Positions 10,776 to 58,096 of a DNA stretch of 64,000 nucleotides are shown piece by piece. Made by a program: the position numbers and the translations under genes. The notes under the pieces are model-generated. The model worked only from the letters and a program-made list of their open reading frames with translations, did not search any database and was not told where the DNA came from. Every line of letters starts with the position of its first letter. The stretch's first letter is position 1. This DNA is from a bacterium (GTDB taxonomy: Bacteria > Patescibacteriota > Saccharimonadia > Saccharimonadales > DATKHC01): contig JAJXXC010000006.1 in NCBI GenBank assembly GCA_021781215.1, forward strand, positions 11,029 to 75,028. Reading direction: 5' to 3'.

Positions 10776-10850
<75 letters not shown>

Positions 10851-10952
10851 TCGGAGAGTTACAGATGAGATTTTATTATAAAATACCTAGACTAAAGATT
10901 TGTGGCCAAATCTCATCTGTTAAATAGTTTGATTCTATTCAATGATAGATTG

Positions 10953-11261
10953 CTAAAGGATTCTGTCTAGGTCTCTGCGTCCGTATAGCATACGCCTAAT
11001 TATCATGACATTATCTATGACAACATAGAATATTAGGTAATTGCCTACAAGAATTCTGCGGTATGGGTATGGTCGGTTGTCTAGTGACTGGTAGGGTGCT
11101 ACGCTCAGTGGATTACTGAGACGTTTTTTAATGGCAGCTTCAGCATTATTAACAAGTGTTTTTGCCGCTAAATTGTTTTTAAGCTCAAATAATAGATAAT
11201 CTGTAATATTATCTAAATCTTCATAGAAAAGTGGAGAGTAACGAAGCTCAAAGTTAGCCAT
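10953..11261 (-). CDS. RelE/ParE-family type II toxin
   Basis: 102 aa with family-typical pattern (YSPLFYEDLDNITDYL...YLIFYVV..NVMIIRRMLYGRRD); overlaps the upstream antitoxin by 8 nt. Confidence 0.65.
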   Translation of the reverse strand: MANFELRYSPLFYEDLDNITDYLLFELKNNLAAKTLVNNAEAAIKKRLSNPLSVAPYQSLDNRPYPYRRILVGNYLIFYVVIDNVMIIRRMLYGRRDLDRIL

Positions 11262-11520
11262 TTATTTTTGCATTAATTTTAGAGAATACATCATCATGCG
11301 TTAGGTTTTCGGCGTGACTATTTGCGTAAATATCAGCTTCGTCAAGAGCACGCTCAATATAATCAAGATGAGATAGTTTACTAAATTTATCAAAACTCAT
11401 GGTCACCATAGAAGCTCTTCCGTTCGTAGTAAAGATAACAGGCTTATTTTTACCACTAACTTCTTGCTCCACTTCTGTAAAGTGATTTCTTAAATCAGAT
11501 ATGGGTCTAATAGTTAACAT
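11254..11520 (-). CDS. Phd/YefM-family antitoxin
   Basis: MLTIRPISDLRNHFTEVEQEV..KPVIFTTNGRASMVTMSFDKF; start moved to the internal ATG at 11520. Confidence 0.7.
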   Translation of the reverse strand: MLTIRPISDLRNHFTEVEQEVSGKNKPVIFTTNGRASMVTMSFDKFSKLSHLDYIERALDEADIYANSHAENLTHDDVFSKINAKING

Positions 11521-11639
11521 AATATATATCCTTTTATAGTTATCATAATTATGATAACACATAATTCAAGATTTGTTTATTTCTTAATGTCTTATTACAT
11601 CTAATAATTTCTCTGACCAAAATCTTATAAACTGATTAA

Positions 11640-11744
11640 TCTAGGTCACCAATTCCCGTAACAGAAGACGAGATTGATGCATGGGAAGAGATTACTTTCA
11701 TTCCAACACACGATTGGCTTGAAAGTAAAAGCATCAAACAGTAG
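11640..11744 (+). pseudogene. start-less C-terminal gene remnant
   Basis: Open frame SRSPIPVTEDEIDAWEEITFIPTHDWLESKSIKQ* with no start codon; begins at a GGTCACCA copy of the tRNA-Glu 3' end. Confidence 0.3.
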
Positions 11745-11767
11745 CGTTAAGACTTATCCAATTTACG

Positions 11768-11858
11768 CTAACTAATACCTCGTACCACCTGAGTAACTCG
11801 GAACAAATAACATTCCAATTCGAGTGGAGCGGGGTCACTATACTCACATGTGCGCCAT
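11768..11858 (+). repeat. cassette-boundary repeat, tRNA-Glu subfamily (left of vapBC)
   Basis: About 80% identical to 12610..12696; contains GGGGTCACTA, which resembles the tRNA-Glu 3' end GGGGTCACCA. Confidence 0.75.
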
Positions 11859-11868
11859 ATATAAGTAC

Positions 11869-11897
11869 TTGACAAATAGTGCCTACATGCCTACACT
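11869..11897 (+). promoter_or_regulatory. putative sigma70-type promoter of vapBC (leaderless geometry)
   Basis: TTGACA-17 nt-TACACT; the -10 box ends 6 nt before the ATG at 11904. Confidence 0.45.
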
Positions 11898-11903
11898 AAG
11901 AGT

Positions 11904-12179
11904 ATGTCAACTATTCAATATACAATTCGTGGGGTTCCACCTGAGATTGATGCTAGGCTTCGTCGTTTAGCTCGCTTAAAAAACCGTAGCCTTAATCAGG
12001 TTGTTCTTGAACAACTGTCTTCTAATAAGTTAATTTTGCCTAAAAGGTCAACTAATATTGTTAAATCTAAGGTCAATACAGATTTTGATGATTTATTTGG
12101 CAGTATTACACCTCTTGAACCAGAAGTAGAAGCAGCTCTAATCTCTCAGCGAGTGGTGAATCCTAAAGATTGGCAATAA
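11904..12179 (+). CDS. vapB: ribbon-helix-helix antitoxin (VapB/FitA-like)
   Basis: N-terminal YTIRGVPPEIDARLRRLARLKNRSLNQVVLEQL; stop lies 1 nt before the PIN gene. Confidence 0.6.
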   Translation: MSTIQYTIRGVPPEIDARLRRLARLKNRSLNQVVLEQLSSNKLILPKRSTNIVKSKVNTDFDDLFGSITPLEPEVEAALISQRVVNPKDWQ

Positions 12180-12180
12180 T

Positions 12181-12573
12181 ATGGACTTCGACCTACTGGT
12201 CTTGGACACAAATTACTATTCAGCCTTGGCGAAAAAAGACATTAGTGTTAATTCACTTATCCGAAATTCAGAAGAAATTGCTTTACCTCATACAGTAATC
12301 GGTGAGTTACTTGGAGGTTTTCGTTATGGAAGCCAATTTGATAAAAACTATAACGATTTAAAACGACTTCTAGCAAAGCCAACATGCAGAGTACTCATGC
12401 CATCCATAGAAACAGCAAATATATATGGTCGACTATATGCTGATCTTAAGAGGCGTGGAAAAATGATTCCTATGAATGATATTTGGATAGCAGCTCTAAC
12501 TATTGAGTACGAAGGAACACTAGCTACGTATGACAAAGATTTCACCGCCATCCAAGGCATTAAGCTTGTTTAG
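12181..12573 (+). CDS. vapC: PIN-domain toxin VapC
   Basis: LVLDTNYY (first acidic residue), mid E/D residues and C-terminal TYDKDF; 130 aa. Confidence 0.8.
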   Translation: MDFDLLVLDTNYYSALAKKDISVNSLIRNSEEIALPHTVIGELLGGFRYGSQFDKNYNDLKRLLAKPTCRVLMPSIETANIYGRLYADLKRRGKMIPMNDIWIAALTIEYEGTLATYDKDFTAIQGIKLV

Positions 12574-12609
12574 CGGCTTTAATAGAAGATAGATTTAGCC
12601 AATCTTTTT

Positions 12610-12696
12610 CGATTAATACTTGGTACCATCTAAGTATTTCAGAACAAATAACCTTCCAATTCGAGTGTAGCGGGGCCACCAGTATACTTATGCCAT
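12610..12696 (+). repeat. cassette-boundary repeat, tRNA-Glu subfamily (right of vapBC)
   Basis: Direct repeat of 11768..11858; contains GGGGCCACCA. Confidence 0.75.
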
Positions 12697-16419: not shown

Positions 16420-18843
16420 ATGACCCAGCGCTTACCAATACCTGGTGGCGATGATGGTGATTGGGGAGATATTCTTAATGGATATCTTGGTGTATCACTG
16501 TACAGTGACGGCACTCTAAACCCTAATGTAGTATCTGATTCTCAAGTAGCTAGCTCCGCAGCCATTAATCCTACTAAAATCTCTGGTATTGCGGAAGTGC
16601 GGACAAATAAAAATCAACCTAGTGGTTATGCGGGATTAAATAGCTCTGGTTTTGTGCCAGTGGCTCTTATCCCTGATGCTACGACATCTGTCCCGGGTAT
16701 AGTTCAATTAGCGGGTGACTTGGGTGGTAGCGGTACTACTGCTGTCGCGCCAACTTTGGCTAATACTAGTAATGTTCAAAGTGTAGTGAATAGTATTATT
16801 GCTACTAATACTACAGTGGCTGGGGCTTTGCAAAAGACTAATAATCTAAGCGATGTTAATGATCCTGGATATAGTCGAGCAAACCTCCATGTTCCAGTAC
16901 TGACTCCGGCTGCCTGTGTATCCGTAACTAATGTGGCCAGTCTTTCGGGCCTTAACACCTATGATGGGTATACTTTAGTCACAGGAGATACGGTTCTTTT
17001 AGTCGCTCAATCTACAGCATCTCAGAATGGAGTCTGGATAGTTGCTTCGGGTTCTTGGATACGTCCTACAGAATTTGCTTCAGGTTCAACTATTAAGGGT
17101 AGGTCAATCCTAATTACTAATGGTGCTACCTATGGCAACACTCAATGGTCATTAGATGCTCCTACAGCAGGTATAACTATAGACACTACTTCTCAGACTT
17201 GGAATAACCTAAATACTTTAAATGGTAAGTACACATCTGTTTTTGGTGTAGCCGCACCAACTGGAGCAGCTGCTACAGATGCCGTCAATATCCAAACACA
17301 GATTAATAATGCTTCATCTAATGGTGGTGGAATCGTACAGCTCCAAATAGGTACCTATGCTTTATCATCAACCTCGCGTATTGATTCCACTGTAACTTAT
17401 TATTCCGCTACATCAGGGTCTTATCCTGCTGGGTCATGGCAGGACTCTTCTATTACATCAGCTGATGTCGGCTCTTATGTTATCGGAATAGGCATTAATG
17501 GCCGTTCGCCTAAGATTTTAACGGTTGTTACCTCACCTGTTACCTACTTTACTACTGATATTGCTCCAGGTGGAACGATATCCGCTTCGGCTGTAACTAT
17601 AGTTAATCCTGGCATTGTGTTGCCAGATGGTGTCACTCTCCAAGGAATAGCTGCGCCGTCAGGTGATGTAGAAGCAAAAACTGTATCTGGTGGAACAACT
17701 ATCGTAGATAGTGGCACCGGAGTAAGTATCTTCTTGCGCGGTGGAGATAATATCGCTGCCTATTTCGGACGTTCTAAAATCAAAGATTTAGGAATATGGG
17801 GTTCAGCGACCTATGGTTCAGTTGGAAGTACTTTAGCCGGTATTTGGGCAAACAATAACACTTCATTCTTAGAGATATGGGACTGTGACATCTCCGGTCA
17901 TTATCAGTTTGGGCTAGCGCTAGATTACAATATTAATTCACTAGATTGCCATAATACGGGCTTTAGCTACTGTGGTCACGCCAGTGCTACTAGCCCAACA
18001 GGTGGTGTGGGAACTGATGTTTATAACGGGTTTGCTTCAGCCGCAATTAATTTTTACAATTGTTGGGGATATAATCTATGGGGCTGGTTTATTGCTCTTG
18101 GTAGCGGTGGACAGGGATCAATCTGCCTTTATAGTTGCCAATGGAATGGTATTAAAGCAACTTCTGCTTATCTATCTGGTTCGGGTGTTCAGGTATCTGG
18201 GCCAAATTCTGTATTGGTAGATTGTTGGTCTGAAACATGTGCTTCCTATGATGTAATAGTTGGCTATGGTTATTGCACTATTATTGCGAGTACTTTATTT
18301 GGTGGTGGGGTTGGTGCTGTCCAAGTTGCTGGATCGTCAACAATAGTTAATCTTATAGGTATTGCTAGCTCTGGTCACAGTACTGCCGCGGTCGTTAATT
18401 CTAATGCCGGTCACGTGTCATGGATGAACTGTCATATCTCAGATTCTGTATTCCTAAATGGCGTGGCTACACCAACGCAGGCAGGAGGTATTGGAACAAC
18501 TAGTAATCTCGTGAGTGCCGGAACAGTTCCAGTCCCTAATGCCGTAACGGTAACTACCAATGCTGGAACCATCCCAGTTACGTCCAGTATTAATACATTC
18601 ACTAATTCATCGTCTGCAGCTATGAGTATTACTTTGGCTACCTCTGGAGCCGTCCAAGGACAGCAGACGATCGTACAAGTATACGATTATGCAGGCACTA
18701 CCGAGTCAATCACTTGGGTTAATACCGAGAACTCTACTATTAGTGTTCCAACTACATCTAATGGATCAACAACATCGCCACTAACTGTTGAATTCATATT
18801 TAACGCTAAGACTACGAAGTGGCGCTGTATTCGATCGGTTTAG
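16420..18843 (+). CDS. large signal-less tail-fibre/beta-helix-like surface protein
   Basis: N-terminus MTQRLPIPGGDDGDWGDILNGYL is shared with 19358..21376; NNLSDV..SRANL motif; NGGGIVQLQIGTYAL pectate-lyase-3-like segment; G/S/T/N-rich. Confidence 0.6.
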   Translation: MTQRLPIPGGDDGDWGDILNGYLGVSLYSDGTLNPNVVSDSQVASSAAINPTKISGIAEVRTNKNQPSGYAGLNSSGFVPVALIPDATTSVPGIVQLAGDLGGSGTTAVAPTLANTSNVQSVVNSIIATNTTVAGALQKTNNLSDVNDPGYSRANLHVPVLTPAACVSVTNVASLSGLNTYDGYTLVTGDTVLLVAQSTASQNGVWIVASGSWIRPTEFASGSTIKGRSILITNGATYGNTQWSLDAPTAGITIDTTSQTWNNLNTLNGKYTSVFGVAAPTGAAATDAVNIQTQINNASSNGGGIVQLQIGTYALSSTSRIDSTVTYYSATSGSYPAGSWQDSSITSADVGSYVIGIGINGRSPKILTVVTSPVTYFTTDIAPGGTISASAVTIVNPGIVLPDGVTLQGIAAPSGDVEAKTVSGGTTIVDSGTGVSIFLRGGDNIAAYFGRSKIKDLGIWGSATYGSVGSTLAGIWANNNTSFLEIWDCDISGHYQFGLALDYNINSLDCHNTGFSYCGHASATSPTGGVGTDVYNGFASAAINFYNCWGYNLWGWFIALGSGGQGSICLYSCQWNGIKATSAYLSGSGVQVSGPNSVLVDCWSETCASYDVIVGYGYCTIIASTLFGGGVGAVQVAGSSTIVNLIGIASSGHSTAAVVNSNAGHVSWMNCHISDSVFLNGVATPTQAGGIGTTSNLVSAGTVPVPNAVTVTTNAGTIPVTSSINTFTNSSSAAMSITLATSGAVQGQQTIVQVYDYAGTTESITWVNTENSTISVPTTSNGSTTSPLTVEFIFNAKTTKWRCIRSV

Positions 18844-19220: not shown

Positions 19221-19361
19221 ATGGTGCACTTTAGTAGCAGTTTTAATTTAGAACTAAAGACAGCCACCGCTATACCCAATAGTAAAAATCTATCGGATTC
19301 TATAGCTTCAGTCATAGCCAGTATTGTAATTAAACTACAGACGCAGAGCATAAAGTCATGA
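19221..19361 (+). CDS. truncated homolog of the 16017 leader ORF (46 aa)
   Basis: Hand translation MVHFSSSFNLELKTATAIPNSKNLSDSIASVIASIVIKLQTQSIKS; ATGA stop/start overlap with 19358. Confidence 0.3.
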   Translation: MVHFSSSFNLELKTATAIPNSKNLSDSIASVIASIVIKLQTQSIKS

Positions 19362-21376
19362 CCCAGCGTTTACCAGTACCGGGCGGTGATGATGGCGATT
19401 GGGGAGATATTCTTAATGGATTCTTGGATGTGTCACATAACGCTGACGGAACCTTGCAGCCGCAGGCTGTTGCGTCTGCTGGTGCCGTAACTAAGGTTAA
19501 CAACCTCTCCGATTTAACCTCTACTGCTACTGCTCGAGCTAACCTAGGTTTGGGAACGGCAGCTGCATCCGATAAGGTAGCCGCTGGCTCGGCGGGTGTA
19601 TTAGATGCTACCGACCCAACTACAACCAATAGTAGAGCACCAGTTGGTGCGGCTACTGGAGATTTATCGGGAACCTATCCTAGCCCTACAGTAGCTCGAT
19701 TAAATGGAATTGCAGTTTCTGGAACTCCTGGAATCGGAGACTTATTAACTGCCACTAACTCTAGTAATGCAGCATGGCAATCTAAACCCTATGTCTCTAG
19801 GATCAGTGGCACCAGCACCACCATAGCTCCGTTAGCCTATTTTAATATTAAAGATTATGGAGCTAAGATTGATGGAGTTACTGATGACTCAGCTGCTGTA
19901 AATGCTACCATAACTGCTGCCTTTGCAGCAGGAGGAGGTCGAGTTATTATTCCGCCCGGAGTCGTAGCATTAAGTGCGCCAATTATTCACGCTTCGTACG
20001 TTATTCTAGAAGGTTCTGGATCAGATGTTAACGGATCCTCGGGGACTATTCTCAAGCCCCTAAGCAATTACGGAGATGTAATTTCCATTCCTACCGGACT
20101 AACGGGGTTTGCTATCCGGCAGTTATCGATTATATATTCAGGAATGAACCAGTATAGTAGTTCTGCTAGCGCCTCTACGCACGCTGCAATAAAGTTCACT
20201 ATTGCAACATCTTCGGCCACTCAAACAATTCAGGGCTTAATAGAGGACGTGGTAGTAATTGGTATGAAAGTTGCCGTATATATGCCCTGGGTTCTAGGAA
20301 GTAGCCTCAATTATTCTCAGTATTATCAGATAATGCTACAACGCCTTCAATTTGCTTCTAATGGCATCAATCTGCTTATGAATGGTTTTTCCGATTCAAT
20401 TATTAACAGTATAATCTGTAACAATACGTTTGGCGTATTACCTTCTAGTCTAGAGACTCGCGTTGCACCGATAGCATCTACTGCTACTCCGTCAGGAACT
20501 TATACCATAGCGTCACAGAATTGGATTAATGACCTTGGAAATAGTCTAATTGATAAATTAGAGGTGTATGGTGGTACGGGTGATGGTATTGTTTTCCAAG
20601 ACTGCATAACAACTACTATTCGGGCCTGTGAGTCAGGGTCCCTGACGGGAAATGGAGTAACTATGCTTGGTTGTAACTCTCAGACCTGTTTGTATGGTCT
20701 TCATGTCGGTCTTGTTAGCGGGCATGGAGTATATGTAACTGATTCAGCTACCAGCAATAATCCTTCTGTAGATTGTCAATTTTTTGGACTGAACGTTAAT
20801 ACAGCCAATTTGCACGGGGTCTATGTTCATGCCGCAGTTTCAGCTGCTGAACGCTTAGGCTTTTATGGCTGCCAGATAAATAATAATAGTCTCTCTGCTG
20901 CTAATACTTACAATGGGCTCGAGCTAGAAGCTTCTAGCGTAGTAGTAGTTGGAGGTACTTACGGTGATTATCAAGTCACGCATACGCAGAGATACGGGAT
21001 TAATAATCGCTATTCTGGGTCTTCTGGGCTAACGGTTATAGGCGTCGAGATGAAGAACAACTTAACTGGCCCAATGGCTCAGCCTAACGACACCACGGGC
21101 CGGATGATTGCTAATATCGGGCTAAACAATACCGCTTTTAGCACCTATACTCCAGGAGTACCTGCTGTTGGATCATCAAACGCAATCGGCAACGGTAATG
21201 CCTATGATATTACTATATATATGTCAGGAACTGCTCCGTCTGGAGTCCATATCGTCGATGTTAACGGGACTGATCAAAACTTAGCAGGCAATCCAACTGT
21301 TGTACATTTGCATCCCAATGAGAGAATATATTTCAACACTACATCTCCCGGGGCCTGGATGTGGTACGGCGAATAA
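19358..21376 (+). CDS. pectate-lyase-superfamily (right-handed beta-helix) tail-fibre-like protein
   Basis: YFNIKDYGAKIDGVTDDSAAVNATITAAFAAGGGRVIIPPG (Pectate_lyase_3 signature); NNLSDLTSTATARANLGLG fibre motif; no signal peptide. Confidence 0.7.
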   Translation: MTQRLPVPGGDDGDWGDILNGFLDVSHNADGTLQPQAVASAGAVTKVNNLSDLTSTATARANLGLGTAAASDKVAAGSAGVLDATDPTTTNSRAPVGAATGDLSGTYPSPTVARLNGIAVSGTPGIGDLLTATNSSNAAWQSKPYVSRISGTSTTIAPLAYFNIKDYGAKIDGVTDDSAAVNATITAAFAAGGGRVIIPPGVVALSAPIIHASYVILEGSGSDVNGSSGTILKPLSNYGDVISIPTGLTGFAIRQLSIIYSGMNQYSSSASASTHAAIKFTIATSSATQTIQGLIEDVVVIGMKVAVYMPWVLGSSLNYSQYYQIMLQRLQFASNGINLLMNGFSDSIINSIICNNTFGVLPSSLETRVAPIASTATPSGTYTIASQNWINDLGNSLIDKLEVYGGTGDGIVFQDCITTTIRACESGSLTGNGVTMLGCNSQTCLYGLHVGLVSGHGVYVTDSATSNNPSVDCQFFGLNVNTANLHGVYVHAAVSAAERLGFYGCQINNNSLSAANTYNGLELEASSVVVVGGTYGDYQVTHTQRYGINNRYSGSSGLTVIGVEMKNNLTGPMAQPNDTTGRMIANIGLNNTAFSTYTPGVPAVGSSNAIGNGNAYDITIYMSGTAPSGVHIVDVNGTDQNLAGNPTVVHLHPNERIYFNTTSPGAWMWYGE

Positions 21377-40793: not shown

Positions 40794-41179
40794 GGGGCTG
40801 AATTTAAGCTCGACGTTGGACATTATCAACTAAATCGGCGAGTCGCTTACTGAGCGTTATACGGTAAAAGCCAATAAATGCAAATACATTTATTAGTCGC
40901 GTAAAGTCATTCTTTACTCCGCAAAGTTATGCTTTCGCAACCTTTGCAGCTTAAACGTTGCAAACGCAAACCAGAATGACGTCAGATAGTTCGGTTTTGT
41001 GTCATTTATCTGAATGCTTAGTATTTAGTGCCCCTAAATACTACTAAGACTTAGGGCTTAGGTACCTAGTTTTTGATTATTTGTTCTCTAGGAACTGAAA
41101 ATTACAAATAATCTACACTCGTAGAAGATTAGTTAAGGTAATCCTTCGGACGTGGGTGTGATACCCACCAGCTCCACCA
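40794..41179 (+). ncRNA. ssrA: tmRNA (SsrA), 386 nt
   Basis: 5' GGGGCTGAATTTAAGCTCGACG pairs with 3' CAGCTCCACCA (includes the G3:U pair); T arm GTGGG-TGTGATA-CCCAC; internal tag frame ends ..FAA-TAA. Confidence 0.9.
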
Positions 41180-41191
41180 TAAGCATTATTA

Positions 41192-41214
41192 CCTCTGTTA
41201 ATTCAGGGGTTTTT
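41192..41214 (+). terminator. ssrA intrinsic terminator
   Basis: CCTCTG-TTAATT-CAGGGG hairpin followed by TTTTT. Confidence 0.7.
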
Positions 41215-41237
41215 GATTTTTATAACACGTTAGTATA

Positions 41238-41266
41238 TTGACAACTCCACGAAATAAAAGTTAAAT
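41238..41266 (+). promoter_or_regulatory. putative promoter of cassette gene 41312
   Basis: TTGACA-17 nt-TTAAAT. Confidence 0.4.
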
Positions 41267-41311
41267 TAGGCTAAGTAACTCTAACAAAACGAAATTAAAA
41301 AGGAAAAGCTA

Positions 41312-42223
41312 ATGTCAGAAGAAGTAAATGATAGTCAGGAACTAGTATATTTACCTAAACAATCAATATTGGGTGGTGGTGAGGATGAAGTTGATAGTGG
41401 CCCATTTCCAAAATCACCAGATGATGAGCCAACACAAGAACTTCCTATTGTTAGACCACTAGCATCCGAACAACCAACGCAGGAAGTACCTATAGTTACT
41501 CCTCCAAACACACTACCTAAGGGCGATTTGGAGTCCTTAGGCGATCAACCTGAAGATACTCGAATGAAAAATGTTGATAAGTCACATGTTGAGGCGTTAG
41601 CCTACGGAAGAAGCCCGTCGATTCCGAGACATGCTGACACTTATGCAGCAGAATCAGGTAACAAATATGAGCTTCAAATAGTAGCTGAAAGAGCCGGCAA
41701 ATCTATAGAGGAAATTGAAGAGATAATCAACGACGATATTAGTGCAAGCTTGACTTATGGTCGTCAGATGATTGAACATCAGTTGGATTTTGGTGAAAAA
41801 CTTGAGTTGAATCAAGAAGTCTTTTTAGCAATTTGTAAAATTGCTGATGCCTTAAGGGAAAAATCTAGTTCGAGTTTACCCGTGGCTATTTATCGTAGAA
41901 GACTTTATGACAACACTTTAATACTAATTAGAGGACATGATTTCGCTGGAAGAGTAGTAGGGTCTGTAATGGATCTTGAAGTATATGACCCGCAAACTAG
42001 TAGTACGAAGATATGGACTGCTTCTCCGTATAGAAGCACTCTTGTAGGTGGAGATTTAACCTACGCAGATAATGGCGTCTTTACTTTGGTTGAAACTACA
42101 GAAAACGAAGGAAAATTTATTCGGGTTAATAAGGAAAGTGTTAAGCCGTTGGATGAAGACGATGTAAGCCAGCTAAAGAATCTTGCGGATTCAATATTGC
42201 TTCGGCAAAATGACTTCAAATAA
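41312..42223 (+). CDS. hypothetical acidic protein (cassette 1)
   Basis: 303-aa ORF with internal PTQE(L/V)PIV duplication; AGGAAA SD-like element upstream. Confidence 0.5.
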   Translation: MSEEVNDSQELVYLPKQSILGGGEDEVDSGPFPKSPDDEPTQELPIVRPLASEQPTQEVPIVTPPNTLPKGDLESLGDQPEDTRMKNVDKSHVEALAYGRSPSIPRHADTYAAESGNKYELQIVAERAGKSIEEIEEIINDDISASLTYGRQMIEHQLDFGEKLELNQEVFLAICKIADALREKSSSSLPVAIYRRRLYDNTLILIRGHDFAGRVVGSVMDLEVYDPQTSSTKIWTASPYRSTLVGGDLTYADNGVFTLVETTENEGKFIRVNKESVKPLDEDDVSQLKNLADSILLRQNDFK

Positions 42224-42273
42224 ATAATAATTTAGTATGTATCACATGCCTAACGCTAAAGTTATATAGTCGT

Positions 42274-42432
42274 TTAGACCTTAGACGATTCTTTTGGTAT
42301 TTCTGCTGTTATCCAAATATCATCAGTCCTGCAGACATAGTGAGTGCGATTATATTGCTTAGAATCCCTGGGGTTATGGCTAGTTTCCTCAGTAATTATT
42401 TCCATTGGTGTATTGCATTTAGGGCAGTTCAT
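42274..42432 (-). CDS. possible zinc-ribbon small protein (52 aa, below ORF-track cutoff)
   Basis: Hand translation MNCPKCNTPMEIITEETSHNPRDSKQYNRTHYVCRTDDIWITAEIPKESSKV; CPKC...VC pattern. Confidence 0.35.
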   Translation of the reverse strand: MNCPKCNTPMEIITEETSHNPRDSKQYNRTHYVCRTDDIWITAEIPKESSKV

Positions 42433-42446
42433 TACTTATATTATAT

Positions 42447-42585
42447 ACCTAAGTTCAATACGCTCTATCCCACTCTGAACCAATAATATTCTTACATCTA
42501 CTCAGCTCTTCGTAAATTTGGTGCCAATTTTCTAATAGTTGCTCCACTATAAACATTGTTGTCTCTGTTAATGCATAGATTTTCG
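42447..42585 (+). repeat. ssrA-3'-end-mimic cassette repeat, copy 1 (diverged)
   Basis: ..GAACCAATAAT..TAAATTTGGTGCCAATTTTCTAATAGTTGCTCCACTATAAAC..TCTCTGTTAAT. Confidence 0.8.
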
Positions 42586-42595
42586 TTATGTGCCA

Positions 42596-42624
42596 TTGAC
42601 AAAACTAATAGAGTATGTTAATTT
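42596..42624 (+). promoter_or_regulatory. putative promoter, leaderless geometry
   Basis: TTGACA-17 nt-TAATTT; the -10 box ends 6 nt before the ATG at 42631. Confidence 0.45.
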
Positions 42625-42630
42625 CTGTTT

Positions 42631-42912
42631 ATGTTAGAAAACGCTAAATCAGAACAATTGGACAAAGGATACGAAATACTTAAACTTAAACTTCGGACTG
42701 CAAGACTAATGAAAGCATCGGGTTTTTTAGGAAGTATTTCTTGCGGCGTGCAGGCAGTAGAACATGGTCATGGACGTGTTCAGGATGCGCTTATAGCAGG
42801 AGTTGCTCTTTATGGTGCTTTACTTGGCGTAGGCATATCAGAAACTCATAAAGCTAAGTTAGAACTAATACGAATAGAGCCGAATAGGACAAACTGGGAA
42901 ACAAATGAATAG
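42631..42912 (+). CDS. small membrane-associated hypothetical protein (cassette)
   Basis: 93-aa ORF with two hydrophobic segments. Confidence 0.45.
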   Translation: MLENAKSEQLDKGYEILKLKLRTARLMKASGFLGSISCGVQAVEHGHGRVQDALIAGVALYGALLGVGISETHKAKLELIRIEPNRTNWETNE

Positions 42913-42918
42913 GCTCAA

Positions 42919-42977
42919 TATACTTAGTCATACACAAACTTCTTAAGTATTTACCTGTTTTAATTCAGAGGTTTTTT
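42919..42977 (+). repeat. collapsed cassette repeat (left end joined to terminator end)
   Basis: TATACTTAGTCATACACAAAC followed by ACCTGTTTTAATTCAGAGGTTTTTT; the central arm is missing. Confidence 0.55.
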
Positions 42978-43054
42978 GTATTTAATTTGTAATTATTAAG
43001 ATTGAGAGAAAGCACATCATAGCGTAAACTATAAGTGTTATTAAAAAATTGACT

Positions 43055-43207
43055 ATGCCAAATAAAAAATCTTTTAAACCAAACGGTATAAATCAACGGT
43101 TTAAGAAAGTATTTTCACCATTTCTAATTATAATTTGTATTTTAGCATCAATCGCCTTCCTGCTTTTTGTATGGGCTTTGGCTCATACCAAAAACATAGG
43201 ATATTAA
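43055..43207 (+). CDS. possible 50-aa single-TM peptide
   Basis: Hand translation MPNKKSFKPNGINQRFKKVFSPFLIIICILASIAFLLFVWALAHTKNIGY. Confidence 0.3.
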   Translation: MPNKKSFKPNGINQRFKKVFSPFLIIICILASIAFLLFVWALAHTKNIGY

Positions 43208-43281
43208 GAACAGCTGTATCTTTAGTATGGTCTAAGCATATATATTATCTACTGTAGTATTATCGTATAGATGAGTGCTTA

Positions 43282-43433
43282 ATCTTAAGTTATACAAAAC
43301 TCTTTTTGTTCTTATTCTATTCGAAACCAATAATACCCCCCCATCTAATCAGTTCTTCATAAATTGGGTGCCAATTTTTTAGTATATGCTCCACCATAAG
43401 CATTATGACCTCTGGTAATTCAGGGTTTTTTTG
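43282..43433 (+). repeat. ssrA-3'-end-mimic cassette repeat, copy 3 (full length)
   Basis: ..CCATCTAATCAGTTCTTCATAAATTGGGTGCCAATTTTTTAGTATATGCTCCACCATAAGCATTATGACCTCTGGTAATTCAGGGTTTTTTT. Confidence 0.9.
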
Positions 43434-43456
43434 TTTATTTTGCTATTATTAATCCA

Positions 43457-43891
43457 ATGGAAGAATATGATAAAGATTTATATTTTGTTGCAATAAAAGT
43501 CTTTTTAAGAGATGGTAACAAACTGCTAATAATTCATGACATTTTCGGTGATTGGGATTTACCTGGTGGACGAATTAAGAAAGATGAATTTAATACTTCC
43601 CTTGAATTAGTTCTAAATAGAAAAATGAAAGAGGAAATAGGAGAGGAGGTCGAGTATGGCGAACCTAAACAGAATGGTATTTTCTTTCGAGTAGAACGTT
43701 TAGAATATGGCATCAATCAAAACGTGAGAATATTTGCGGTGGGTTATGATGCTGAGTATAAAGGTGGTGAAGTCACCCTTGGAAAACATATAAGCGATTT
43801 TAAATGGGTTGATATTAATAATTTTAATCCTAAGGAATATTTTAGAGGTGGATGGTTAAGGGGTGTTGAAGACTACTTAATATCCAAATAA
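43457..43891 (+). CDS. divergent NUDIX-like hydrolase (cassette)
   Basis: GGRIKKDE...NRKMKEEIGEEV is a loosened Nudix box. Confidence 0.5.
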   Translation: MEEYDKDLYFVAIKVFLRDGNKLLIIHDIFGDWDLPGGRIKKDEFNTSLELVLNRKMKEEIGEEVEYGEPKQNGIFFRVERLEYGINQNVRIFAVGYDAEYKGGEVTLGKHISDFKWVDINNFNPKEYFRGGWLRGVEDYLISK

Positions 43892-43922
43892 GCATTATGA
43901 CCTATGTATATGAGGTCTTTTT
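43889..43922 (+). repeat. right-end-only repeat fragment plus terminator
   Basis: TAAGCATTATGACCT, then hairpin GACCT-ATGTATATG-AGGTC and TTTTT. Confidence 0.5.
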
Positions 43923-43946
43923 CTTTTATTTGGTATTATATAGATT

Positions 43947-44507
43947 ATGAAAAGTATAGTCTTGTTTGGTGATAGCTTCTTAGCAAATATTGATAAAGCA
44001 GCGACTCTGAAACTACAAGATAAAATACCTAATTCTGTTATATATAACTGTGCAACTGGCGGATTTGATACTAGTGATTGTCTAATTAGAGCTTCTCTAG
44101 TCTCTAAAATGAAAGCAGACTATATTATTATTTCAATAGGTACTAATGACGCTTCACCCTGGAAACAAGTTCCTCTAGAAGTTTTTAAGTCAAATTTAAT
44201 AAAAATTATAGACATTTTGAAAGATTCGAAACTTGTCTACTTTCTCCCTCCACCAGTTGATGAATCTAAACACGACCCAGCTAAGATACGAAAAAACGAG
44301 ACCATGAATGAGTATCGTGAGTCAGTAAGAAAAATATTAGGTGATAAGGTAGTTTACTTAAACTCAGACGACTTCTATGGCAAACTCGGTAAACATGGAA
44401 TTGAGTACCATATTTCTGATGGAGTCCATCTTAATCAAGTTGGTTATGTAACTCTATTTAATGAGCTCTCGAAATTGTTTACTAAATTGTTAAATTCTAG
44501 TGCCTAA
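43947..44507 (+). CDS. SGNH/GDSL hydrolase (cassette)
   Basis: GDSF block I, GTNDA block III, DGVHLN block V. Confidence 0.8.
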   Translation: MKSIVLFGDSFLANIDKAATLKLQDKIPNSVIYNCATGGFDTSDCLIRASLVSKMKADYIIISIGTNDASPWKQVPLEVFKSNLIKIIDILKDSKLVYFLPPPVDESKHDPAKIRKNETMNEYRESVRKILGDKVVYLNSDDFYGKLGKHGIEYHISDGVHLNQVGYVTLFNELSKLFTKLLNSSA

Positions 44508-44657
44508 CACTTAAGTTGTACAAACCCTCTTATCTCTATTCCAATCTGAACCAATAATCTCTCCCCATCTAATCAGTTCTTCATAAATTTGGTGCCAATT
44601 TTTTAGCAGATGATCCACTATAAGCATTACGGCCTCTGTTAATTCAGGGGTTTTTTG
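44507..44657 (+). repeat. ssrA-3'-end-mimic cassette repeat, copy 4 (full length)
   Basis: ACACTTAAGTTGTACAAAC...CCATCTAATCAGTTCTTCATAAATTTGGTGCCAATTTTTTAGCAGATGATCCACTATAAGCATTACGGCCTCTGTTAATTCAGGGGTTTTTT. Confidence 0.9.
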
Positions 44658-44691
44658 TTATATATACAGAAGATAAGTTAAACTTAATGCA

Positions 44692-45543
44692 ATGAATAAA
44701 TCCGAAGATAGCGCAGTAATTAAGTACTATAAAACCAAAGAATCGCTTTGGGGTTATAACTTGATTCTTAAGGGTGTTAAACATTTTGGATATTACCCTA
44801 AAGGAAAAGAAAATATATCTATTGCAGACGCACAAGAAATAATGAGTATTGAGGTAGGTAAACAGTTAAACTTAAGCAAGGATTCATTAGTTCTTGACGC
44901 TGGTTGTGGAGAGGGCCCAGTGTCGGTGGCTATTGCTCAGAAATATAAATATCGTCTAGAGGGTCTAGATTTGTTGGACTTTAATGTTGAACACGCAAAC
45001 GAGAGAGCTAAAAAGGCTGGTGTAAGTGATAGAGCACACTTTCAAGTAGGTAATTATTCGAAGCTAGATTTTCCCGATAATCATTTTGATGGAGTGTTTA
45101 TGGTTGAGACTTTCGTACATGCCCCAGATTACAAAAAAGTCTTAAAAGAGATTCGTAGAGTGTTAAAACCTGGCGGCAAGTTGGTTATTGCTGAATATAC
45201 TAAATCACCAGACGAAGAACTAACACCTAGGCAGAGGAGAATACTTGAAAATATCATAGTGTTTTCATCTATGCCTAGTTTCAGATACTTCATTAATGAT
45301 AAGTTTGCGGAATTAATTTCAGCTGAAGGATTTAATGACGTCAAGACGTCTAACATTAGTCAGAGAATTGAGCCAATGACTAAAAAACTATATTATATTG
45401 CGATAATTCCATATCAGATAATCCGTCTTTTTAAACTTCAAAAACACTTCATAAATACAATGTGGGGGGTATATCATTACCCGTATAATAAAATAGGCAT
45501 TTGGAGGTATAACATTACCACTTGCACTAAACCTAACAGATAG
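44692..45543 (+). CDS. class I SAM-dependent methyltransferase (cassette)
   Basis: Motif I VLDAGCGEGPVS; post-I LEGLDL; motif III-like LKPGGKLVIAEY. Confidence 0.8.
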   Translation: MNKSEDSAVIKYYKTKESLWGYNLILKGVKHFGYYPKGKENISIADAQEIMSIEVGKQLNLSKDSLVLDAGCGEGPVSVAIAQKYKYRLEGLDLLDFNVEHANERAKKAGVSDRAHFQVGNYSKLDFPDNHFDGVFMVETFVHAPDYKKVLKEIRRVLKPGGKLVIAEYTKSPDEELTPRQRRILENIIVFSSMPSFRYFINDKFAELISAEGFNDVKTSNISQRIEPMTKKLYYIAIIPYQIIRLFKLQKHFINTMWGVYHYPYNKIGIWRYNITTCTKPNR

Positions 45544-45554
45544 GTTGGTGTTCA

Positions 45555-45704
45555 ACACTTAAGTTACATAATTTCTCTTTGTTTTAGCCCATACGGAATC
45601 AATAATACCCCTCCATCTAATCAGTTCATCATAGATTTGGTGCCAATTTTTTAGCAGATGATCCACCATAAGCACTATGACCTCTGTTAATTCAGGAATT
45701 TTTG
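45555..45704 (+). repeat. ssrA-3'-end-mimic cassette repeat, copy 5 (full length)
   Basis: ACACTTAAGTTACATAA...CCATCTAATCAGTTCATCATAGATTTGGTGCCAATTTTTTAGCAGATGATCCACCATAAGCACTATGACCTCTGTTAATTCAGGAATTTTT. Confidence 0.9.
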
Positions 45705-45752
45705 TATTGGTTATGCTTGTGGAAATATACCTAAGGTATCACAATATAAATC

Positions 45753-46592
45753 ATGCGTTCCACTGAACACAGACTAGGCGGTGAATTACCAGAAGCCGAA
45801 GTTAGTAATGAGCAAATTGATGCTCGTTTAAATGAGTGGCTTGAACTCGCAAGAGCACACCCCGGTGAATTAGTCATAGTATATGAAGATATCCATCGCG
45901 TAGATTTATCTATGGCAAGAATTCGTAATGATATTGACGAGGTAGTACCTAGTAGAACTTTAGCTGGGATTACTATCGCCGAATCACCTACTATATCTAA
46001 CAACGGTTACGGGATGAGTGAGCATGACCATGCTTTATCTCTAGATATAACCCAAATATACGAATCGTTTCAATTATACAGGTTATGGTTAGGAGAGAAG
46101 TATGGAGAATTACCAAAAGTTCAAGTAGTATTTGGTAATGAAGCAGTTGCTGACTGGTTCATGCGAAGTAGTCATTTGCCTTATGTTGAACCATATATAT
46201 ACGTACTGATGGTTAAGCGTTTAGGTTTTGAACCTAAAACTACACCCGAAATAATAGCATCGGTTGCTGACTACAGAGCTAAGGTTATAATTAATCTGGC
46301 AGAGTTAGTGCTCAAACAGACTGATATTAATACAAAAATTGATAAAATTTATAAGAGTGTAGGAGGGAGGGCACAATCACTGCATAGTGGTCTAGCTATT
46401 GGGATGGCACCAGAAAGTTTCATGGAGGCAGGTTTCAGAACATATCAAAATCGCTTAGATAGAGATAATAATGCCAAACACATCGATAGATTAAAGCGAG
46501 AATTAATTAGTTTAGACATAGTAAAAGAAGAATTTTATCAGACGATTGCAGAAATATTTGGTTTAAGTTTAGACTTGCCTCGACCCGAGTAG
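45753..46592 (+). CDS. hypothetical protein (cassette)
   Basis: 279-aa ORF, no recognised motif. Confidence 0.5.
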   Translation: MRSTEHRLGGELPEAEVSNEQIDARLNEWLELARAHPGELVIVYEDIHRVDLSMARIRNDIDEVVPSRTLAGITIAESPTISNNGYGMSEHDHALSLDITQIYESFQLYRLWLGEKYGELPKVQVVFGNEAVADWFMRSSHLPYVEPYIYVLMVKRLGFEPKTTPEIIASVADYRAKVIINLAELVLKQTDINTKIDKIYKSVGGRAQSLHSGLAIGMAPESFMEAGFRTYQNRLDRDNNAKHIDRLKRELISLDIVKEEFYQTIAEIFGLSLDLPRPE

Positions 46593-46595
46593 ATT

Positions 46596-46732
46596 ATCTA
46601 TATCTCCTATACAGTTCCACCTTGTATCAATGATTCCATTCCATCTAATTAGTTCTTCATAAATTTGGTGCCAATTTTTCAATAGATACTCCACCATATA
46701 CAATGCCACCTCCGTCAATTCAGAGGTTTTTG
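46596..46732 (+). repeat. ssrA-3'-end-mimic cassette repeat, copy 6
   Basis: ..CCATCTAATTAGTTCTTCATAAATTTGGTGCCAATTTTTCAATAGATACTCCACCATATACAATGCCACCTCCGTCAATTCAGAGGTTTTT. Confidence 0.85.
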
Positions 46733-46754
46733 TTATTTTAAGCATATAAATAGA

Positions 46755-46783
46755 TTGACAAATAATAATATATAGTGTAGAAT
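46755..46783 (+). promoter_or_regulatory. putative promoter, leaderless geometry
   Basis: TTGACA-17 nt-TAGAAT; the -10 box ends 6 nt before the ATG at 46790. Confidence 0.45.
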
Positions 46784-46789
46784 ATCTTT

Positions 46790-47062
46790 ATGAATAATAA
46801 AGGTCGAGAAATAATTTCAAGAGCAGTGAATGGTGTTATGTATAGTCCGCATCCAAACGGAGAGGAACATGTTAGGTATTTTAGACTAAGAGGCTTATCC
46901 TCGATTCCAGAATCCGTACTAAATCATCTAGATGAAGCTGGATTGATGGAAACTCCCGGTATTATTTCTCCTGATATTCCTGTCGATACACCCATATTAA
47001 GGATAATTGGCTTAACTACTGATGGGATATTATTTGAGGATATACACGTTCCCAAAAGATAG
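46790..47062 (+). CDS. hypothetical protein (cassette)
   Basis: 90-aa ORF. Confidence 0.45.
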   Translation: MNNKGREIISRAVNGVMYSPHPNGEEHVRYFRLRGLSSIPESVLNHLDEAGLMETPGIISPDIPVDTPILRIIGLTTDGILFEDIHVPKR

Positions 47063-47099
47063 TCTTCTCTTTTGATATTCAATCTCTTGTTTATACTCT

Positions 47100-47216
47100 A
47101 TCTACTCATCCCAGAGTAAATATTTTCATCTTCTTATTTCTTCAAATATAAGGTGTGAATTATTTTCGAGGTGCTCCACCATGAGCATTACGGCCTCTGT
47201 TAATTCAGAGGTTTTT
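47100..47216 (+). repeat. ssrA-3'-end-mimic cassette repeat, copy 7 (decayed arm, intact right end)
   Basis: GGTGCTCCACCATGAGCATTACGGCCTCTGTTAATTCAGAGGTTTTT; the arm still reads MVEHLENNSHLIFEEIRR* on the minus strand. Confidence 0.75.
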
Positions 47217-47264
47217 ATTGTTAATATGCTTGTAATTTGTGGTACTGGGGCCTAATATACCAAT

Positions 47265-47699
47265 ATGGACTTAGATAAACTAAGGAAATTTGAATCAGAT
47301 AGAAAAGATGAAGAAGATTTATATATACAAATTGGAAGTATAGTTTTAAATCCCGACGCTAGCTTAAATGACTATGTCTTAGCTACAATAAGTGTGTTAA
47401 GTCGACAAGAAAATGGACCCATAAGCCGCCACCTTTTAGAGTACGTAACTAAAGGTGTTGCCCAGTATGCATTTTGGGATAACGACAGTAGCGGAAAACC
47501 TATATTCGAATATGGTAACGATGCAGAACATGTAAGAAAACAGACTATAAGATCATTCGCTGATTTATATGAGCAATATTTCATAACACAAGATTTATCA
47601 CCCAGCAGTGAGACTAGTGGAAAAATTTCTATAACAGATAGTGGTTTAAATGCCCTTAGGAGTGTTATGCCAGAAGAAGATTTATCTAGAGTCGATTGA
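47265..47699 (+). CDS. hypothetical protein (cassette)
   Basis: 144-aa ORF. Confidence 0.45.
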   Translation: MDLDKLRKFESDRKDEEDLYIQIGSIVLNPDASLNDYVLATISVLSRQENGPISRHLLEYVTKGVAQYAFWDNDSSGKPIFEYGNDAEHVRKQTIRSFADLYEQYFITQDLSPSSETSGKISITDSGLNALRSVMPEEDLSRVD

Positions 47700-47733
47700 G
47701 AATCTGGAATAATTCTTAAAAAAATAATGCCCA

Positions 47734-47850
47734 ACATTCAAGTTATATAACCTCTCTTATACCTATTCCAATCAGAACCAATAATCTCTCTCCATCTAAT
47801 CAGTTCTTCATAAATTTGGTGCCAATTTTTTAATAGATGATTCGCTATTA
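47734..47850 (+). repeat. ssrA-3'-end-mimic cassette repeat, copy 8 (no CCA core or terminator)
   Basis: ACATTCAAGTTATATAACC...CCATCTAATCAGTTCTTCATAAATTTGGTGCCAATTTTTTAATAGATGATTCGC. Confidence 0.8.
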
Positions 47851-47868
47851 ACTTATAAGTTTTTATAT

Positions 47869-48603
47869 ATGGTAGGGCTGTCTAGTATAATAGTATCAAT
47901 GAACCAATTTTCTGCTCACCCAGGCCAACCACATAGATCTCATCGAGGTAACTGGCTAAGAGCTTCTGTACTAGGAGTTGATGACGGTATTGTATCTGTT
48001 TCAAGTTTAATGTTGGGAGTTTCTACTGCTCATGCCAATAGCTCAATAATATTAACTGCGGGAATTGCCGGGTTAGTCGCCGGAGCTCTATCAATGGCAA
48101 CGGGAGAATATGTGTCAGTAAGCTCGCAGCGTGACTCAGAAAAAGCAGATATTCTTATGGAAACTCGTTCTCTAGAAGACAACCCGGACGAAGAACTTGC
48201 AGAGCTAACAGCTATATATGAACATAGAGGCTTAGATCCTAAATTAGCCAAGGCTGTGGCAGAACAATTACATGCACACGATGCGGTTTCTGCACACCTA
48301 AGAGACGAAATAGGTATAGATGGTGATTCTTTAGCAAGGCCAGCTCAGGCAGCCTTAGCATCTGCATTGGCATTCTCTATTGGCGCGATAGTACCCATAA
48401 TCGCAACCTTAGCTGTTAACGGGAATACAAAAATTTTGGCTATTGTAATTGCATCACTAGTGGCATTAGGCATATCTGGGGCTATTGGGGCATTGCTTGG
48501 TGGTGGTAATAGATTATGGGCAGCGGCTAGGGTATTTATCGGAGGCGGTGCTGCGATGGCTATTACTGCACTCATTGGACATGTTATTGGAAGAAGTGTA
48601 TGA
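47869..48603 (+). CDS. VIT1/CCC1-family iron/manganese transporter (cassette)
   Basis: WLRASVLGVDDGIVSVSSLMLGV, a central acidic cytoplasmic helix region and C-terminal TMs. Confidence 0.8.
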   Translation: MVGLSSIIVSMNQFSAHPGQPHRSHRGNWLRASVLGVDDGIVSVSSLMLGVSTAHANSSIILTAGIAGLVAGALSMATGEYVSVSSQRDSEKADILMETRSLEDNPDEELAELTAIYEHRGLDPKLAKAVAEQLHAHDAVSAHLRDEIGIDGDSLARPAQAALASALAFSIGAIVPIIATLAVNGNTKILAIVIASLVALGISGAIGALLGGGNRLWAAARVFIGGGAAMAITALIGHVIGRSV

Positions 48604-48713
48604 CACTAAAGTTATACAAACCCTATTCCAATCAGTCCTAGATAAATAGAGTGCCAATTTTTTTAAGACATGCTCACCGTGACTATTCAGCCTCTGTAAA
48701 TTAAGAGGTTTTG
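48603..48713 (+). repeat. ssrA-3'-end-mimic cassette repeat, copy 9 (terminal, degenerate, internally deleted)
   Basis: ACACTAAAGTTATACAAACCCTATTCCAATCAG..GTGCCAATTTTTTTAAGACATGCTCACCG..CCTCTGTAAATTAAGAGGTTTT. Confidence 0.7.
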
Positions 48714-57862: not shown

Positions 57863-57938
57863 GCGAGTGTAGCTCAGCTGATAGAGCGCTTCCTTGCCAA
57901 GGAAGAGGCCACGGGTTTGAATCCCGTCACTCGCACCA
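57863..57938 (+). tRNA. tRNA-Gly (GCC), CCA encoded
   Basis: GCGAGTG..CTTCC-TTGCCAA-GGAAG..ACGGG-TTTGAAT-CCCGT-CACTCGC-A-CCA. Confidence 0.9.
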
Positions 57939-57950
57939 ATTTGCATTATT

Positions 57951-57972
57951 AGCCCCATCTAGGGGCTTTTTG
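57951..57972 (+). terminator. intrinsic terminator after tRNA-Gly
   Basis: AGCCCC-ATCT-AGGGGCT hairpin followed by TTTTT. Confidence 0.65.
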
Positions 57973-58096
57973 TTTAATTGGATAATGGCTTTATAGGTGT
58001 TAATTGGTTTAAAACTTAACTTTTTATCGTAAAGCACAGTATTGGCATTAGAAAAACACAGAGTCTATCTGCAGATACTTTTATTATTTAGCTTTT

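Follow-up and report, generated by a model that had tools for sequence, protein, structure and literature searches.

Why should a reading frame of some 38 codons be conserved, codon by codon, in the repeats of a cassette array? The question is raised by a 64-kb stretch of Saccharibacteria DNA (the window), in which an array of at least eight small cargo cassettes lies between ssrA, the gene for transfer-messenger RNA (tmRNA), and yggT. The repeats between the cassettes carry a micro-open reading frame (micro-ORF) on the minus strand. An earlier note on the window had seen this frame begin on a mimic of a CCA end, and had proposed that it is under protein-coding selection as a small free-standing peptide or, failing that, that it is the relic of a larger gene. 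Our analysis indicates that the micro-ORF is very probably the severed 3' end, ~36 codons long, of a gene for a large serine recombinase (LSR), with the attachment site attP lying inside that gene. Related loci display both the split state, in which attL holds the recombinase body and attR its tail, and unsplit forms at tandem junctions; the point of crossover between the two states is placed by sequence comparison. Coordinates without a locus label refer to the window, L numbers to related loci, and P numbers to database proteins.

A recombinase frame that runs into the antisense tmRNA

Two features of the window mark the target site.

40794..41179, plus strand: tmRNA gene (ssrA), the integration target; full-length Rfam match (RF00023, 87.9 bits, E 9.6e-33)
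41170..41214, plus strand: tmRNA-proximal junction, attB-like or attL-like, without a tail arm; core CTCCACCATAAG at 41172-41183 and terminator hairpin at 41191-41210

The CCA-end mimic of the earlier note, which had not recognised the tmRNA gene, turned out to be a literal copy of the tmRNA 3' end: the final bases of the gene, CTCCACCA, are copied into each repeat. The copied tmRNA CCA end identifies the locus as an array of cassettes integrated behind ssrA, at its 3' end. Read on the plus strand, a repeat consists of an arm of ~115 nt, the core CTCCACCATAAG, a terminator-like hairpin and a T-run. All three kinds of site, tmRNA end, LSR junction and arm junction, share the core (7-13 nt, depending on the lineage); it starts within the final 8-9 nt of the tmRNA, at the acceptor/CCA end, and runs 4 nt past the gene.

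No LSR body is present at ssrA in the window, where the only LSR trace is a 45-codon remnant at a tRNA-Gly gene; the ssrA arms of the window are therefore orphan tails. In locus L007, a 518-amino-acid (aa) LSR with a Resolvase domain (PF00239, E 2.3e-12; PF07508 weak) adjoins ssrA on the opposite strand. Its C-terminus reads ...KKDLRFSRKSL-MVE-LVGITPTSEGLS to the stop codon, crossing ATG GTG GAG in the frame of the micro-ORF and continuing into the antisense tmRNA. A second LSR of L007 carries the precomputed domains Resolvase, Recombinase and Zn_ribbon_recom, and the LSRs of related loci contain CxxC...CxxC motifs and two long predicted helices. A metagenome scan with the L007 LSR returned five more loci with a like arrangement, and two database fragments also have it. 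Altogether, seven independent LSR genes (L007, L009, L010, L011, which equals L012, L013, P0023 and P0024) end ...SL-(M/L)VE-L... into the antisense 3' end of the tmRNA. In L007 and L011, the two loci with both element ends visible, the LSR element measures ~5.8 kb and an intact tail ORF that would join in frame lies at its far end (L007:11026-11142 and L011:5714-5821). The L011 tail copy opens CTG GTG GAA, with neither an ATG nor a Shine-Dalgarno-like sequence.

Searches with the peptide, which the earlier note had put forward as a check, revealed a widespread family. A profile search of 5.8 billion word-indexed sequences yielded 22 small proteins, and an exhaustive HMMER profile search of 1.84 billion representative proteins yielded 94 clusters of the tail ORF family. 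The exhaustive search also recovered ORFs in which an LSR C-terminus and the tail are contiguous: P0066, P0073, P0033, P0062, P0052 and P0095. P0066 (L023:3-668), which reads ...RVRCQQLVFPGGISFNADKKVGTSQLSALYSLKPNKKDLRNDRKSLLEELIQDNWHPIELELGHWREVLAIPWMRAKNNYVP, is separated from its ssrA (2115-2523) by one cassette. P0063 (L024:9704-10648), of the tRNA-Glu type, reads ...SPLYSLISSDNTLLQANNSVL-VTPLHSNWKVICSEILRW... and is what remains of an LSR zinc ribbon and coiled coil, running on into a tail that almost matches the tRNA-Glu arms of the window. When the L007 C-terminus and tail were rejoined in silico, the product aligned with two of these ORFs with no gap where body and tail meet: P0066 (47% over 135 aa, E 1e-46) and P0073 (33% over 128 aa). 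At L002:3798, a deletion intermediate keeps ~35 LSR C-terminal codons in frame with a tail, and the tRNA-Gly remnant of the window is another such intermediate. The frame is continuous with the LSR gene wherever an LSR is present, and the fallback of the earlier note was essentially right. A chimeric LSR-plus-tail query in the word-indexed database returned only fragments of the integrated form, and a search of the rejoined LSR against PDB sequences gave nothing at E <= 0.01. An AlphaFold model of the LSR C-terminal fragment with the tail, at a predicted local distance difference test score (pLDDT) of 63.7, was too uncertain to place the tail. A tyrosine integrase N-terminus was also considered as the identity of the ORF and was rejected, as the window holds no integrase and the profile search of the word-indexed database gave short proteins only.

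The overlap between gene and target extends upstream of the core. In L007 (16755-16800) and at the equivalent positions of L009, L010 and L013, a replacement terminator hairpin for ssrA is embedded in the pre-core codons of the LSR (KKDLRFSRKSL), and the changes in its stem among LSR lineages (CGG/AGC vs CGA/AGT) are both compensatory and synonymous. The hairpin beside each core could be either the native ssrA terminator (B') or a remnant of the P' arm of the LSR.

Collectively, these arrangements suggest a model for the array. The crossover core would be complementary to the acceptor/CCA end of whichever gene is targeted, CTCCACCATAAG for ssrA and GGGGTCACCA for tRNA-Glu, and the frame would be fixed on the CCA end as xTG-GTG-NNN, GTG being the complement of C72-A73-C74. 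The residue after this Val varies over the 94 clusters (E or D, T, A and others), as it should where the CCA end sets the frame and the next codon reads the acceptor stems of different tRNAs. Integration at the 3' end of ssrA would leave the LSR body at attL, reading ~13-16 codons into the antisense tmRNA, and would send the tail to attR on the far side of the element, beside the copy of the ssrA end and the terminator hairpin. While unsplit, on an excised circle or at a tandem junction, the gene would be a single ORF that comprises both body and tail. Conservation at the codon level would then come from selection on the tail as a part of the recombinase, with a DNA constraint superimposed near the core, where AAAAATTGGCAC is a candidate contact of the zinc-ribbon domain in the attP half-site. 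The LSR would be the enzyme that builds the array: LSR elements would enter at ssrA and later leave or decay, and LSR-less cassettes would move by accretion, or cis-mobilisation, whenever an LSR element leaves by way of an attR farther out. Such co-excision would rebuild a full-length recombinase from the tail of that cassette, and accretion with tail reuse would explain why many orphan tails are intact while others decay. The tail helix may modulate the activity of the recombinase, or its coiled-coil-dependent directionality, according to the integration state.

Several observations weigh against this reading. A complete, full-length LSR with a contiguous tail was not recovered, and the contiguous examples are either cut by contig ends (P0066, P0073) or deleted at the N-terminus (P0063). 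A circular attP form was likewise absent from the viral contigs that were scanned with the LSR, which had no match there, and with a DNA pattern of the repeat. The LSR body has its catalytic domain, zinc ribbon and coiled coil before the core; because these canonical parts already precede it, the tail may be dispensable. In addition, the tRNA-Gly-type LSR ends right after the core, in another frame (TGG TGC GAG). LSRs recombine at the central dinucleotide of sites of ~40-50 bp and, without a directionality factor, act on attP x attB only; this rule does not by itself predict the accumulation of LSR-less cassettes. The one presence/absence polymorphism examined is in two near-identical contigs from related samples (L019:5527-7759 vs L021:2066-3098), which differ by two ssrA-proximal cassettes. 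Their breakpoint falls in the common hairpin-plus-core stretch rather than cleanly in the core, and two polymorphic bases (CAT vs AGT) speak against a simple core crossover. Roughly every second arm is broken and, as described below, one clade of copies carries signals that may permit separate translation. The sole match to the DNA pattern in the viral contigs, L008, is a phage terminase/portal fragment and was set aside as a chance match.

Selection on the tail and the competing readings

To describe the selection acting on the tail, we used the 43 distinct arms found by an unbiased nhmmer census over all fetched loci. Approximately 22 of them keep the frame open to a conserved stop, after ...GYIT or ...PEG. 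Among intact copies, the minimum numbers of changes at codon positions 1/2/3 were 21/22/32 in the window-type clade and 18/21/39 in the second clade, a third-position excess in both and not the even spread over positions that the earlier note had named as contrary to its proposal. The ratio of nonsynonymous to synonymous substitution rates (dN/dS; NG86, pairwise rather than tree-aware, intact copies only) was 0.32 and 0.25 in the ORF frame of the two clades, vs 0.6-1.7 in the other two frames, so that protein-coding selection, suspected from the few window copies, is borne out in a larger set. Arg18 is invariant and is written AGA, AGG, CGA or CGG, Arg29 is written with five codons, and the Leu and Ile positions vary among their codons. 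RNAalifold, run on 18 intact arms, found no consensus fold (0 pairs, no covariation), which leaves the alternative of compensatory changes in an RNA or DNA structure without backing. The third-position excess, the low in-frame dN/dS, the switches between Arg codons and the lack of consensus pairing together argue that the protein-level signal is real.

This signal is overlain by a second one. Codons 7-10 (AAA AAT TGG CAC), which lie 15-27 nt from the core, do not vary even at synonymous sites in the 21 copies checked. This lack of synonymous variation points to a constraint at the DNA level on top of that on the protein, and the first ~30 bp of the arm probably serve as a recombinase half-site. 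The protein-coding signature seen in the earlier note is genuine, and part of the conservation acts on the DNA instead.

The frame is also often lost. Stops, 1-2-nt indels or frameshifts, or truncations break 21 of the 43 arms, so that the upkeep of orphan tails is uneven. In L014, L022 and L002, the broken copies tend to lie far from ssrA.

Could the micro-ORF instead be an independent small gene, with its own start at every cassette end and a ~4-kDa helical product, for example a directionality factor or a recombinase regulator, whose match to the LSR frame is secondary? The window-type (clade-A) copies have an ATG with AGAGG upstream, gene callers annotate many copies as proteins of 35-41 aa, and the stop position is conserved. 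Purifying selection also fits, and the reading is compatible with the split-gene model. For the tail alone, AlphaFold gives a confident single long helix (pLDDT 83.6), which is predicted to be amphipathic and has, by eye, Trp/Ile/Leu at roughly heptad spacing. However, the start position is variable, with ATA, TTG, CTG, GTG or AAG in place of ATG, and neither a start codon nor a ribosome-binding site is conserved. The AGAGG, which the earlier note had correctly traced to the terminator stem at about 6 nt, lies 5-6 nt upstream of the ATG within a terminator-like hairpin and is present only where the stem supplies it; the complement of CCA+T dictates the ATG, just as the terminator stem dictates the AGAGG. 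The L011 arm and the tRNA-Glu-type arms contain no Shine-Dalgarno-like sequence, and no promoter-like site stands out on the minus strand of the arms. With nearly half of the arms broken, and with contiguous LSR-plus-tail ORFs in the databases, we consider an independent gene unlikely. The free-standing cassette peptide, toxin or accessory factor that the earlier note had put first is not supported as the main reading, on these grounds: a variable start, arms that lack a Shine-Dalgarno sequence, breakage of about half the copies, and continuity with the LSR frame.

It is very unlikely that the arm is conserved as DNA only, as an extended recombinase-binding (P-arm) site in which the open frame is incidental. 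The invariant codons 7-10 do sit where a half-site is expected, and arms persist beside cassettes that lack a recombinase. In contrast, conservation extends over ~115 nt, vs the ~40-50 bp established for LSR att sites, and beyond codon 11 the changes at positions 1/2/3 (36/34/51) still show a third-position excess, while Arg switches between the AGR and CGN families. Furthermore, the peptide pattern persists in both clades and in the tRNA-Glu family although their nucleotide identity is low, and the same residues lie in continuous LSR ORFs.

An attC-like or RNA element acting as a folded single strand is scarcely credible: it would suit a one-way array of single-gene cassettes with ~150-nt repeats beside a fixed site and a hairpin in each repeat, but RNAalifold finds no pairing or covariation, the sole hairpin is a GC-rich stem with a T-run that acts as terminator of ssrA and of the cassette genes, Rfam has no match in the repeats, and the window holds no tyrosine integrase.

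The ssrA array and its counterparts at tRNA genes

The repeat family of the window comprises 7-8 members of ~150 nt between 42.4 and 48.7 kb, the eighth and last being degenerate. The motif CTCCACCATAAGCAT occurs 9 times at <=3 mismatches, vs 1.47 expected, and 9 occurrences were reached in 0/100 shuffles. The micro-ORFs that the earlier note had listed were all recovered at the positions and with the translations it gave. The arms and the cargo between them are as follows.

41225..48628, plus strand for all large genes: cargo region between the arms
41312-42223, plus: cargo, 303 aa, function unassigned
42444..42589, minus: arm c1, orphan tail (ORF 42455-42556) with Trp19 replaced by Cys and an early end; core, degenerate hairpin (nhmmer 106.7 bits)
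42631-42912, plus: cargo, 93 aa
43286..43435, minus: arm c3, tail ORF 43317-43403 (MLMVEHILKNWHPIYEELIRWGGIIGFE, then stop), premature stop at codon 27; core and hairpin
43457-43891, plus: cargo, NUDIX
43947-44507, plus: cargo, GDSL hydrolase
44506..44659, minus: arm c4, intact 38-codon tail 44511-44627 (MLIVDHLLKNWHQIYEELIRWGEIIGSDWNRDKRVCTT, then stop), identical to P0001; core and hairpin
44692-45543, plus: cargo, SAM methyltransferase
45555..45708, minus: arm c5, intact tail 45559-45675 (GTG start); core and hairpin
45753-46592, plus: cargo, 279 aa, function unassigned
46584..46736, minus: arm c6, 2-nt deletion near codon 29; read-through ORF 46569-46745, which contains MVEYLLKNWH..., identical to P0019
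46790-47062, plus: cargo, 90 aa
47101..47219, minus: arm c7, divergent sub-family (MVEHLENNSHLIFEEIRR, then stop) with in-frame stops; ORF 47126-47188
47265-47699, plus: cargo, 144 aa
47734..47886, minus: arm c8, tail codons intact (KLIANHLLKNWHQIYEELIRWREIIGSDWNRYKRGYIT, then stop); core, start codon and hairpin lost
47869-48603, plus: cargo, VIT1
48629..48713, minus: arm c9, degenerate last copy with hairpin 48689-48710, distal end of the array

The cargo genes are mutually unrelated and come one or two per unit, in cassettes of 0.5-1.4 kb, many of which appear to bear their own promoter-like sites. Related Saccharibacteria contigs use the same hotspot (MarR-ssrA ... yggT) and fill it with arrays of other cargo. 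A DNA-pattern scan assigned the repeat family to Candidatus Saccharibacteria; a match in L003 (Arcobacter) was discarded as chance.

A number of further observations concern the array. ARAGORN, when run on the window, did not call the tmRNA gene that Rfam found; this may be because its tag frame (40875-40952, by eye) is unusually long, encoding ANTFISRVKSFFTPQSYAFATFAA. Two junctions, 42953-42983 and 43888-43927, have a hairpin only (the second also TAAGCATTATGACC) and neither arm nor core, which implies that some cassettes hold two genes or that arms were deleted. The divergent arm sub-family (MVEHLENNSHLIFEEIRRW...), which lacks the NWH motif, occurs in several genomes (window 47101-47219, L005:11874-11989 and L005:9331-9412), and every copy is broken or truncated. 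The first cassette contains a small minus-strand ORF (42274-42432) with a zinc-ribbon-like CxxC...C motif (MNCPKCNTPMEI...YVCRTDDIW), the sole sizeable minus-strand gene candidate within the array. In L002 (2969-7490), a Saccharibacteria metagenome-assembled genome, array and tmRNA gene are in inverted relative orientation, with the tmRNA pointing away, which suggests an inversion, possibly between att sites. In L023 (1540-2115), a small insert with an HNH_3-domain protein (1822-2079) is placed between a duplicated 19-nt tmRNA 3' fragment (~1566-1584) and the real tmRNA gene (2115-2523), and looks like a separate insertion into the tmRNA end.

The window also contains related systems at tRNA genes, listed below.

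10776..12682, plus: second, paralogous system at tRNA-Glu, with the gene (10776-10850), two toxin-antitoxin cassettes and two arms
11737-11842, tail ORF minus: tRNA-Glu arm 1, encoding MTPLHSNWNVICSELLRW...; closed by a copied tRNA-Glu 3' end
12563-12682, tail ORF minus: tRNA-Glu arm 2, encoding MAPLHSNWKVICSEILRW...; likewise closed by a copied tRNA-Glu 3' end
57930..58064, minus: 3'-terminal remnant (45 codons) of a tRNA-Gly-specific LSR gene (...NANTVLYDKKLSFKPINTYKAIIQLNKKPLDGANNANWCE, then stop)

The earlier note had pointed to a tRNA-Glu subfamily with the same residue spacing. These two arms are its members, and they keep the same register to the acceptor end as the ssrA arms. The tRNA-Glu island matches the LSR-plus-tail ORF of L024 (tblastn, E 3e-9). 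Its cassettes are a ParE/Phd pair (10953-11562, minus) and, assigned by eye, a VapB/PIN-like pair (11904-12573), and a bare copy of GGTCACCA lies at about 11645-11652. The tRNA-Gly remnant abuts or overlaps the 3' end of the tRNA-Gly gene (57863-57938) and is 62% identical to the tRNA-Gly LSR of L007 (E 1.8e-11, tblastn); its codons double as a hairpin that now serves as the tRNA-Gly terminator. Elsewhere in the window, where the GC content is slightly raised (0.42), two large neighbouring ORFs of 807 and 672 aa begin with a 95-nt repeat (16420-16514 and 19358-19452, 81% identical) and are probably paralogous surface or secreted proteins.

Precedents and meaning

The closest precedent is found in the ssrA islands of Dehalococcoides (McMurdie et al. 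2011), where a CcrB-like LSR, DsiB, targets the single-copy ssrA, tandem islands lie downstream of that gene, and the 3' end of dsiB always overlaps attL. There it was speculated that DsiB might work fully only on the circle or beside an island that provides "the requisite 3' gene fragment" (PMC3146451). As in the arrays described here, units are bounded by copies of the ssrA 3' end and some lack an integration module; the overlap of the LSR gene with attL at its 3' end is shared by seven LSR genes of our related loci. The two systems differ in the insertion point, which in Dehalococcoides is the T-loop (333/334), with a 20-bp repeat, and here is the acceptor/CCA end plus 4 nt. They also differ in size, islands of 10-30 kb there vs cassettes of 0.5-1.4 kb and an LSR element of ~5.8 kb here. 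The six-gene module of Dehalococcoides (DsiB, the small serine recombinase DsiA, RecF-like, ParB-like and Mom-like proteins and a large protein) is absent from the L007 element, for which precomputed Pfam shows only NYN, DUF5681 and the LSR. Finally, the overlapping C-terminal part is divergent in Dehalococcoides, whereas here it is a conserved, codon-constrained family that is also found at tRNA targets.

SSV-type archaeal integrases, studied by She et al. and in related work, reportedly have attP inside int, so that the gene is partitioned upon integration into a tRNA. The likeness is that attP lies within the recombinase gene, the halves mark the element ends and orphan fragments accumulate. 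However, those enzymes are tyrosine recombinases that the int(N)/int(C) split disrupts, whereas here a serine recombinase would keep its body intact and detach a tail of ~36 residues. In the integration-dependent immunity of mycobacteriophages, said to have been described by Broussard et al. in 2013, attP lies inside the repressor gene. There too integration gives a phage protein another C-terminus than it has in the free state; that system involves a repressor that loses a degradation tag and a tyrosine integrase, whereas any effect of the swap here would fall on a serine recombinase. Integrons, together with cis-mobilisable elements that arise by accretion, resemble the arrays in being one-way series of mostly single-gene cargo, with a repeat beside a fixed site and cargo that differs by strain. 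Here, in contrast, there is no attC fold, the repeat consists of a recombinase coding piece, a tmRNA end and a terminator, and a Pfam scan of 30 window proteins found no integrase domain and hence no IntI.

The tycheposons of Prochlorococcus, a minority of which use LSRs (Hackl et al., bioRxiv 10.1101/2020.12.28.424599), are similar in forming islands at tRNA and tmRNA genes of a streamlined genome through successive integrations, which leave partial tRNA repeats, decayed elements and stranded cargo. They differ in relying mostly on tyrosine recombinases and in having replication modules, and the text searched mentions no split recombinase or conserved tail. Our literature search found no description of a split-LSR tail system in Saccharibacteria or Patescibacteria, and serine recombinases that target tRNA genes have been stated as not known (PMC7192596).

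The detachment of an LSR tail would explain a puzzling codon-conserved "gene" that has been annotated as dozens of unrelated hypothetical 38-aa proteins. The loci document serine recombinases aimed at the ends of tRNAs and tmRNA, in contrast to the statement in PMC7192596, and they lend sequence-level support to the Dehalococcoides speculation on dsiB, that a recombinase is completed by a 3' fragment across the attachment site. More tentatively, and as a proposal that may well prove too broad, an LSR clade of Saccharibacteria, probably also of other Patescibacteria, might target tRNA/tmRNA CCA ends with attP in its own 3' coding region, using the swap of its C-terminus (a Trp-rich helix when free, an antisense-tRNA stub when integrated) as a switch and leaving a spare tail exon with each cassette in an integron-like system. 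If the C-terminal swap does control activity, the enzyme family on which genome engineering draws most would contain a natural directionality device that it encodes itself. The system would also offer the ultra-small genomes of the Candidate Phyla Radiation a route to trade single-gene cargo.

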